A stretch of 32,000 nucleotides of DNA. Source: Actinacidiphila acididurans (GTDB taxonomy: Bacteria > Actinomycetota > Actinomycetes > Streptomycetales > Streptomycetaceae). Shown piece after piece: positions 11,638 to 12,628 of this stretch. A model generated the notes under the pieces. It made no database searches and had not been told where the DNA came from. It saw only the letters and a list, made by a program, of their open reading frames with translations. The stretch covers positions 373,623-405,622 of the forward strand of contig NZ_JADKYB010000007.1 in assembly GCF_016918855.1 (NCBI RefSeq). The letters run 5' to 3'. How positions within the stretch are numbered: position 1 is the first letter of the stretch; every line of letters begins with the position of its first letter. The position numbers and the translations under genes are program-made.

Positions 11638-12628
11638 CCTGTGGGGGGCTGGCTTGTGGCGGTTGAGTTGCCGGGGCCGGTGGTGTCGTTCCTGAGCGTC
11701 GTCGGGATCAGCTGGCCGAACGTCAACGAGGACAAGGTGCGGGAGTTCGCCTCGCACATCCGGGAGTTCGCCTCGGCGGTGGACACCACCCACCAGCAGG
11801 CCACGGCCACCGTCAAGGAGCTGGGGGCTCACTACAAGGGGGCCTCCTACGAGGCGCTGCTGGCCGCGTGGGGTGAGAAGTCCTCCACGCACATGGCCGA
11901 GTTGGTCAGCCTGTGCCACGGGGTGGCCACCGCGCTGGACGTGGCCGCGGGCGTGATCGTGACGATGAAGGGCGAGTGCATCGCCGAACTCATCGGCCTG
12001 GCAACCGCGTTCGTGGCGGAGCAGGCGGCGGCGGTGGAGACGCTGGGGTTGTCGGAGGCGGCGGCAGCGGCGACGGTGAAGCTGGCCGAGAAGGCCGTGC
12101 AGGTCCTGGAGGACCAGCTCACCCAGTACATCATCGCCGAGGTCATCGAAGCGGCCCTGGACCCCCTGGTCGAAGCCGTCGGCAAGGCGGCGAGCGGGCT
12201 GATGTTCAAGGCCACCGAGGACGCCCTCGGCGTGGACACCGACGGATGGGACGGCGGCCCCGGCTTCGAGATCCACCCGTCCATGCTGACCTTCCACGCC
12301 ACCACGATGCACGGCCACGCCGAGACCGTCACCGGCCACGCCACAACCCTGCAGACCAAGCTCGCCGGGGTGAACTTCCAGTGACCAACCGCATCGTCGC
12401 AGCCCTGGAACACGCCGCGACCAGGCTCGGCAAGACCCTGGGCGAGGACGCCGGCAAGGCGGTCGGGGATCTGTACCACTCCACCGGCCACAACCTGACC
12501 GGCATCGCCGAGGACACCACCGCAGCCGACCTCAAGCACGAAACAGCCCTGCGGGGCCTCATGCACGACACCAAACAGCCCTCCGTCCACGCACCCCACG
12601 ACGTCAGCGACACCGGGCACCTCCCCCA
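11638..12628. repeat. Left arm of an inverted repeat of about 1 kb (helper gene plus the first ~80 codons of Rhs)
   Basis: It matches the reverse complement of 26711-27700. The encoded helper proteins differ at under 10 of about 242 residues. The Rhs N-termini are identical apart from a few substitutions up to HAPHDVSD.GHLPH. Confidence 0.85.
11656..12384 (+). CDS. ESX/T7SS-substrate-like helical protein (WXG100-like / CpnT-N-terminal-like domain), a putative Rhs helper
   Basis: The motif ELPGPVVSFLSVVGISWPNVNEDKVREFA resembles the actinobacterial WP..(D/N)ED..(L/V)R N-terminal toxin domain. The rest is an Ala-rich helical region. The preferred start is the GTG at 11656, after a G-run, where homology to copy 2 begins. 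The stop overlaps the Rhs start as GTGA. Confidence 0.7.
   Translation: MAVELPGPVVSFLSVVGISWPNVNEDKVREFASHIREFASAVDTTHQQATATVKELGAHYKGASYEALLAAWGEKSSTHMAELVSLCHGVATALDVAAGVIVTMKGECIAELIGLATAFVAEQAAAVETLGLSEAAAAATVKLAEKAVQVLEDQLTQYIIAEVIEAALDPLVEAVGKAASGLMFKATEDALGVDTDGWDGGPGFEIHPSMLTFHATTMHGHAETVTGHATTLQTKLAGVNFQ

Follow-up and report, generated by a model that had tools for sequence, protein, structure and literature searches.

LXG toxins of the Firmicute type VII secretion system (T7SS) depend on helical targeting factors that are encoded by genes of their own (PMC9600955, PMC10801868), and LXG toxin modules are commonly located outside the primary T7SS locus (July 2026 review). The Rhs toxin LrhA of Listeria monocytogenes is encoded together with three small helical partners, LxpABC, next to essC8, and genomic and modelling data have led to the proposal that it is exported by the T7SS (PMC10327511). 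For Streptomyces, the T7SS is cited for development only in the July 2026 review, and the ESX systems of this genus were encountered in the searched literature in connection with development and sporulation only, with no toxin substrate reported. The present analysis concerns a window (i.e. the whole stretch of DNA analysed; 32,000 nucleotides (nt) of Actinacidiphila acididurans contig NZ_JADKYB010000007.1, with a G+C content of 70%) in which a gene pair occurs twice in convergent orientation, each copy consisting of a gene for a 242-amino-acid (aa) protein, designated here as the helper, followed by an Rhs gene, the first 62 codons of which are designated as the handle.

It is, in our judgement, rather probable that the helper acts in trans as a separately encoded T7SS adaptor of the WXG100/CpnT-N-terminal-like type, and that the toxin carries a tag for this adaptor, the pair serving polymorphic toxins of Streptomycetaceae. 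An earlier inspection of the window from its sequence (referred to below as the original prediction) had put forward such an arrangement; every check named with it that was carried out here came out in its favour, its observation is confirmed and its interpretation is supported at the computational level. It had also stated that no Rhs delivery route is known to have been characterised in Streptomyces; none was found in the literature searched, nor was a T7SS toxin for this genus, with the reservation that coverage was incomplete and that absence is not proof.

The helper family and its handle-bearing toxins

The elements on which the analysis is centred are located as follows.

11656-12384, + strand: helper1 (copy 1), GTG start, 242 aa, an all-helical protein of the WXG100_2/WXG100 family (translation, Pfam and AlphaFold2)
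26955-27683, - strand: helper2 (copy 2), 242 aa (translation and alignment)
12381-12566, + strand: handle of copy 1, first 62 codons of Rhs1, predicted amphipathic helix (alignment of 78 partner N-termini)
26773-26958, - strand: handle of copy 2, first 62 codons of Rhs2
11651-12628: duplicated block, copy 1, helper plus Rhs codons 1-82 (blastn)
26711-27688: duplicated block, copy 2, in inverted orientation (blastn)

Both helper loci were confirmed at 242 aa each, as was the predicted GTGA overlap, in which the helper TGA stop codon and the Rhs GTG start codon share positions 12381-12384 in copy 1 and 26958-26955 in copy 2. Longer open reading frames (ORFs) are possible from position 11632 in copy 1 and position 27731 in copy 2; the starts at 11656 and 27683 are preferred because all 36 aligned homologues begin with MAIELPG. 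Helper2 was found to match protein P0001, from A. acididurans, at every column of the printed alignment. The G+C content at third codon positions (GC3) is 0.93 in both helper genes, a value typical for coding sequence under selection. Comparison by blastn showed that positions 11651-12628 correspond to 27688-26711 with 96.1% identity over 978 nt, and that this block is sharply bounded, extending from 5 nt upstream of the helper start to Rhs codon 82, beyond which the Rhs1 and Rhs2 genes align at only 64-74%. The statement that the first ~80 Rhs residues are conserved together with the helper thus proved exact.

Profile searches placed the helper within the T7SS substrate families, bearing out its suggested CpnT-like and WXG-like character. 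Residues 15-139 matched WXG100_2 (PF25547, CpnT-N-terminal-like) at profile positions 13-143 of 150 with 38.9 bits (gathering cut-off 27; E=1e-9), and residues 23-98 matched WXG100 (PF06013) with 38.4 bits (gathering cut-off 27.3; E=1.6e-9). UniRef labels helper homologues as 'CpnT-like N-terminal domain' proteins, and many of them are auto-annotated as 'WXG100 family type VII secretion target'. Consistent with the helical character ascribed to the helper from its sequence, AlphaFold2 modelling from a 38-sequence alignment returned an elongated, all-helical protein (predicted local distance difference test score (pLDDT) 76.4; predicted template modelling score 0.68) with helices at residues 25-56, 63-129, 132-179, 182-191 and 208-237 and a disordered Gly-rich loop at residues 194-204. 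The protein differs from a canonical WXG100 single hairpin of ~100 residues in its length of 242 aa and in the additional helices that follow the modelled 25-56/63-129 hairpin. An invariant W72, followed by G or A, lies inside the second modelled helix and outside the 57-62 loop. No matches were obtained to PE (PF00934) or PPE (PF00823), either for the helper at E<=1 or for the handle at E<=10, and Pfam searches with the Rhs N-terminus, handle and helper gave no match to LXG, DUF3130 or DUF3958.

The C-terminal end of the helper (residues 204-242; window positions 12265-12381) comprises a conserved last helix and tail, GFxIHPxxLxxHAxxMHGHAETVAGHAxxFQxKLAGVSFE, in which F241 is invariant. In its sequence, this segment resembles helix 1 of WXG100 proteins, and the tail might be an ATPase-recognition element. 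We also take the terminal ...KLAGVSFE to be loosely similar to the C-terminal tail of EsxB, a likeness on which no weight is placed.

An exhaustive profile-free search retrieved 639 representative helper relatives, many of which are 500-680 aa in length and align through their first ~240 residues with the whole helper at 35-45% identity. The five such proteins of 540-680 aa that were inspected carry Pro/Ala/Ser-rich tails after the helper domain. One relative, P0130 (41% identity over the full helper; E=1e-44), is encoded directly upstream of eccA-eccB-eccC and is also accompanied by PPE, EspB_PPE and EspC/EspK-like genes. Another, P0131, is encoded in an island that also holds Anthrax_toxA, Scabin-like and Fic genes, along with genes for two further WXG100_2 proteins. 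The Pfam membership of the helper and the gene contexts of these relatives tie the helper domain to ESX systems. The relatives of 500-680 aa represent a putative and uncharacterised Esp-like substrate class; an NlpC/P60 gene precedes them in three of the four contexts inspected (locus L087, 9001-10806 with its flanks; L086; L089).

The helper family comprises more than 238 database protein matches, all of ~240-247 aa, from Streptomyces, Kitasatospora, Streptacidiphilus and Actinacidiphila, and a genome scan confirmed at least 167 stretches that encode a helper relative, with several paralogues present in some genomes. For a survey of gene context, 85 related Streptomycetaceae loci from Streptomyces, Kitasatospora, Streptacidiphilus, Actinacidiphila and Peterkaempfera were examined. 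The co-occurrence of helper and toxin, for which such a survey had been recommended, was observed in 76 of the 85 loci, each with a handle-bearing toxin; recurrence across so many independent loci places the pairing far beyond chance. The helper stop codon overlaps a start codon (ATGA/GTGA) in 74 of the 85 loci; 71 of these starts open a real partner gene and three open ORFs of 2-35 codons, which were counted as orphans. In five further loci, a spacer of 3-70 nt separates the helper from a homologous partner that also bears the handle. No handle partner lies downstream of nine orphan helpers (L010, L019, L020, L034, L036, L038, L051, L073 and L079), which could be deletion remnants or could act in trans on toxins encoded elsewhere. 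Helper-toxin fusions were absent from all 85 loci. Given the lack of fusions, the uniform helper length of 240-247 aa and the 74 overlaps, the two-gene arrangement is old and maintained. All-against-all ORF clustering across 84 loci (83 related loci and the window) revealed no third conserved accessory gene, such as an EspG-like chaperone or a small Esx pair.

The predicted pairing of helper and Rhs recurs across loci, but the system is not specific to Rhs proteins, since deaminases also occur as partners. Rhs partners are represented by 57 complete ORFs of 1237-1400 aa and three that are truncated or run off a contig end; 15 further partners are XOO_2897-type deaminases of 263-333 aa (PF14440; E=1e-11 to 1e-17), and one of 345 aa has another deaminase-like C-terminus (C-x-E...PCxxC). 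In the 15 deaminase-type loci (L008, L011, L013, L022, L027, L028, L030, L033, L035, L043, L056, L057, L061, L075 and L080), an ORF of ~194 aa directly follows the toxin in nine cases and is likely to confer immunity; a protein of ~280 aa with an HPEE…PC…C deaminase-like C-terminus and no handle is encoded in all 15, and an ORF of 600-800 aa, resembling by eye an NTPase with WD40-type repeats, in ten.

Alignment of 78 partner N-termini defined the handle consensus MSNQIVKALEHGAxKLGKTLAEDAGKAVKDLYHxAGxxLKKVAxNxxExDAKHAxELxKILKG, which starts at a conserved Met-Ser/Thr-Asn and is followed by a low-complexity linker rich in Gly, Pro, Arg and His. The handles of Rhs1 and Rhs2 are 97% identical. 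An AlphaFold2 model of the Rhs2 handle, built on a shallow alignment of three sequences, showed a helix at residues 4-63 (pLDDT 70-84) followed by the disordered linker. No consistent Pfam family was obtained for 43 handles, and global searches with a single handle sequence and with a 43-sequence profile yielded two short proteins (98 and 39 aa) and nothing else, probably owing to a word-index limitation. The same handle heads both the Rhs proteins and the XOO_2897-type deaminases and, within the helper-anchored loci, directly follows a helper in every case. As read from these alignments, the handle is a discrete, portable module.

Co-variation with the helper was expressed as the Mantel r between pairwise-identity matrices, each toxin segment being compared with the helper. 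The handle gave r=0.83 and the linker r=0.40; values dropped to 0.11 for DUF6531, 0.18-0.32 for the rest of the Rhs core and 0.04 for the C-terminal toxin, so that the co-variation breaks off sharply at the linker. This pattern indicates that helper and handle are inherited or co-adapted as a unit, with exchange of the cargo taking place downstream of the linker. In the window, the 96% block, which ends at Rhs codon 82, follows this pattern. The conserved Rhs N-terminal handle envisaged in the original prediction is accordingly both portable across cargo and linked with the helper. The data further suggest that orthogonal helper-tag pairs keep paralogous toxins sorted.

Proposed export route and competing explanations

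For the preferred reading, in which the helper is a T7SS adaptor acting in trans, the following route may be envisaged. The helper would be made in step with the toxin through start/stop translational coupling, and the toxin would be laid out as a ~62-residue amphipathic handle, a disordered Gly/Pro/His-rich linker and cargo, the latter being, in the window, a variable C-terminal toxin held within an Rhs cage and, elsewhere, a free nucleic-acid deaminase. Binding of the helper to the handle would create a composite helical bundle that the ESX ATPase EccC could recognise, such that helper and toxin are exported together. Once outside, the toxin would act on competitors in interbacterial antagonism, with downstream immunity genes protecting the producer. 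What the data show are the family to which the helper belongs, the coupling, a handle that is portable and co-varies with the helper up to the linker, and a full-length relative in an ESX locus; physical binding of helper and handle, dependence on ESX and an antibacterial role are inferred. The question of how Gram-positive actinomycetes might export Rhs toxins that lack a signal peptide would then be answered, in a concrete form open to testing, by a single adaptor gene together with a tag of 62 residues.

Several observations weigh against this adaptor role. The helper scores 30.7 bits against NCBIfam TIGR03930, which is under the cut-off of 44.85; neither the alignment of 38 helper sequences nor that of the handles shows a conserved YxxxD/E export motif past the hairpin; and Foldseek and HMM searches of the PDB gave no significant match. 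ESX core genes are absent from the window and from the annotated flanks of four helper-Rhs loci, and the longer helper relatives retain the helper C-terminal helix without any handle partner. Linkage, combined with a hotspot of recombination within the low-complexity linker, could account for the co-variation of adjacent segments in place of co-adaptation. Finally, the folded Rhs cocoon is thought to be too large for the T7SS channel (PMC10327511), which implies that Rhs export would have to precede folding.

In a first alternative, the helper would be exported by the T7SS in its own right and work beyond the cytoplasm, e.g. as a pore former or envelope-crossing factor resembling EsxE-EsxF, aiding release or entry of the toxin with no targeting through the handle. 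Membership of the WXG100 family fits this idea, as does the occurrence of longer relatives with a full helper domain and no handle partner, which indicates that the domain can function alone. Such a role would leave unexplained why a 62-residue tag is placed on unrelated cargo, and why the tag-helper correlation of r=0.83 is absent for the next domain; moreover, streptomycetes are not known to have a mycomembrane that would need to be crossed. PMC7810871 describes a precedent, in that secretion of CpnT by Mycobacterium tuberculosis needs the co-encoded WXG100 pair EsxE-EsxF, which forms membrane channels. On balance, an extracellular role is considered unlikely.

The helper could alternatively be an intracellular chaperone or stabiliser, with the toxin leaving by lysis, in vesicles or through another exporter, and with the WXG100 score reflecting a generic helical-hairpin fold. 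The modest Pfam scores (~38 bits) and the sub-threshold TIGR03930 score would be in keeping with this, as would the lack of a YxxxD/E motif, of nearby ESX genes and of a PDB structural match, together with a cage size that is awkward for T7SS. It is set against two independent Pfam models of T7SS substrates, both above their curated cut-offs, against the full-length relatives of 35-45% identity in an ESX locus and in an island of candidate toxins and WXG100_2 proteins, and against the absence of a Sec/Tat-like N-terminus from the toxins. A purely intracellular function is considered quite improbable.

Recent splitting of a single WXG-Rhs fusion by a nonsense or frameshift mutation, leaving the helper as a decaying fragment, is barely credible even though fused WXG-toxins, some with RHS repeats, are known in actinobacteria (PMC3482391), locus L089 encodes a 1682-aa WXG100_2 protein and Rhs1 carries a nonsense codon, since none of the 85 loci in five genera holds a fusion, the helper has a conserved length and ends at a conserved C-terminal ...SFE/NFQ, with 74 of 85 stops overlapping a start codon, both helper genes retain a GC3 of 0.93 and the handle opens at a conserved Met-Ser/Thr-Asn. 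The recent-split alternative raised by the original prediction is contradicted by these data, the homologues being uniformly 240-247 aa, and was rejected on the absence of fusions and on the conserved helper length and C-terminal end. Programmed frameshifting that would fuse helper and Rhs was also rejected, as no slippery heptamer precedes the stop codon and the Met codon that opens the handle is conserved.

Returning to the trans-acting adaptor, we advance more tentatively a broader proposal, namely that Streptomycetaceae possess an undescribed 'reverse LXG' export code, in which the free 242-aa WXG100_2 protein would serve as the trans T7SS signal and a swappable helix of ~62 residues, co-evolving with the helper, would render any cargo exportable, whether a deaminase of 260 aa or an Rhs cage of 1300 aa. 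If this were true, antibacterial effectors of the T7SSa would be known for the first time from outside the mycobacteria, and filamentous actinomycetes would have their first Rhs delivery route. Confirmation could also provide a small portable export tag for actinomycete biotechnology.

Rhs cargo and neighbouring genes

The Rhs genes of the window and the elements associated with them are listed below.

12381-13640, + strand: Rhs1, N-terminal part, with handle, linker, DUF6531 and first YD repeats, ending at an in-frame TAG
13641-16283, + strand: continuation of Rhs1 in the same frame after the TAG, with YD repeats, Rhs core and a C-terminal toxin without Pfam match
23086-26958, - strand: Rhs2, intact, 1290 aa, with handle, linker, DUF6531, RHS repeats, Rhs core and an unclassified C-terminal domain
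16280-16819, + strand: candidate immunity gene for Rhs1, its ATG overlapping the Rhs1 stop (ATGA), 179 aa, no Pfam match
22323-23078, - strand: candidate immunity gene for Rhs2, its ATG 8 nt past the Rhs2 stop, with a GAGG-like ribosome-binding site, 251 aa, no Pfam match
21155-21781, - strand: orphan Rhs C-terminal cassette downstream of Rhs2, with an RHS core motif (PF03527; 9e-8) and Tox-HNH-EHHH (PF15657; 2.8e-7)

Rhs2 matches RHS repeats (PF05593; 2.9e-87), the Rhs core (TIGR03696; 6e-22) and DUF6531 (PF20148; 1e-22). Within a YD repeat (…SRTD*LGRTT…), the Rhs1 frame is interrupted by an in-frame TAG (13638-13640), after which it remains open on to 16283; the toxin gene of copy 1 is a recent pseudogene, contains a sequencing error or requires read-through. 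Because of it, copy 2 holds the sole intact toxin gene of the pair. Translation and profile searches upheld the view that these Rhs proteins lack a signal peptide and PAAR or VgrG domains: no Sec/Tat-like N-terminus is apparent, residues 1-110 gave no Pfam match, and PAAR, VgrG and DUF1795 (EagR) were likewise without a Pfam match. The proteins are predicted toxins that display the features of Rhs polymorphic toxins, i.e. repeats, core, DUF6531 plug, variable C-terminus, an adjacent putative immunity gene and an orphan cassette. Across the surveyed loci, the Rhs C-terminal regions share a mean pairwise identity of 18%.

The ORFs at 16280-16819 and 22323-23078 stand where immunity genes are expected and are regarded as candidates on the basis of their position, and small unannotated ORFs near the orphan cassette, e.g. 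20713-21237, may be further immunity genes. The C-terminal toxin of Rhs1 (15801-16280, + strand), which has no Pfam match, shares the motifs VYR…NMSGD…DPTxGPDLYGIP…IPGSGR with the C-terminus of the 1400-aa partner of locus L072 from Kitasatospora sp. HPMI-4, and their recurrence there points to a recurrent unclassified toxin domain. DUF4291 genes were seen near Rhs1 (16844-17557, - strand) and, in S. beijiangensis, after an Rhs and small-ORF pair (L001, 15133-15726); an ORF directly after the orphan helper of L020 (7783-8421) has an N-terminus that is DUF4291-like by eye. DUF4291 may thus be an immunity or detoxifying family linked to Rhs1-type C-terminal toxins.

Immediately upstream of helper1 lies a gene for an HtrA-like Trypsin_2-PDZ protease (9071-11212). 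Upstream of helper2, a DUF6959 protein (28399-28752, + strand) and a protein of 416 aa that has a Barstar (RNase inhibitor) domain at its C-terminus (28888-30138, + strand) are encoded, and these may be orphan immunity genes. Elsewhere in the window, two HATPase_c_2 anti-sigma-type kinases and a GAF-SpoIIE (PP2C) phosphatase (78-557, + strand; 2284-3753, - strand; 7318-8055, - strand) are typical partner-switching regulators, and the other genes encode a Prim-Pol protein (4177-5007), a DUF5926+SEC-C protein (5685-7019) and a GDPD protein (8299-9321).

Comparison with known secretion systems

The window loci resemble type VI secretion system (T6SS) Rhs effectors of the PAAR/VgrG and EagR kinds in combining an Rhs cage toxin with a dedicated accessory protein encoded immediately upstream. 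They differ from these in lacking PAAR, VgrG and DUF1795, and in belonging to Gram-positive hosts without a T6SS.

PE/PPE heterodimers, e.g. that of LipY, are T7SSa substrates in which a short helical N-terminal module on the cargo pairs with a longer, WxG-bearing helical partner. The handle and helper follow the same division into a short helical N-terminal cargo module and a longer helical partner; unlike PE/PPE proteins, neither has a PE or PPE Pfam match, and no EspG-like chaperone gene is conserved nearby.

CpnT of M. tuberculosis is likewise a T7SSa toxin with downstream immunity, and the helper matches PF25547, a family built on such N-terminal domains (PMC8092274, PMC7810871). In CpnT, this domain, which contains a functional Y88xxxE, is covalently joined to the TNT toxin (PMC8092274), whereas here it is a separate polypeptide without the motif. 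A CpnT-type domain thus does not form the N-terminus of the toxin itself, since the window and each of the 85 loci encode it in an ORF of its own. Furthermore, ORF clustering revealed no counterpart of the EsxE-EsxF pair nearby.

The actinobacterial WXG polymorphic toxins described by Zhang et al. 2012 share predicted T7SS export, RHS repeats and deaminase or HNH cargo with the present system (PMC3482391). Those toxins are single-chain fusions; a split helper combined with a conserved handle was not found in the text searched.

LrhA and LxpABC parallel the helper-Rhs pair in their DUF6531 and RHS repeats, their domain-less N-terminal region and their adjacent WXG100-type partner genes. Unlike that essC-linked T7SSb system with its three small partners, the present system has a single 242-aa WXG100_2 partner that is not linked to ESX genes, is translationally coupled and is shared with deaminase cargo.

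The LXG toxins and their Lap1/Lap2 (DUF3130/DUF3958) partners of the Firmicute T7SSb are similar to the present system in being polymorphic toxins without a signal peptide that are preceded by genes for separate helical proteins (PMC9600955, PMC10801868). Both systems show a conserved targeting region, a variable C-terminal toxin and downstream immunity, and their loci are scattered away from secretion genes. The roles of the parts are, in contrast, reversed: LXG toxins carry a helical domain of ~200 aa and have small helpers, whereas here the large WXG100-like domain is free and the toxin bears a helix of ~62 residues. The number of helpers also differs, with two or three for LXG toxins and one in this case, and the hosts are Actinomycetota with T7SSa-type systems. 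The parts described here come from families already known, and T7SSb provides a precedent for the adaptor-plus-toxin logic; if the helper and handle are confirmed to function as proposed, that logic would be extended to T7SSa.

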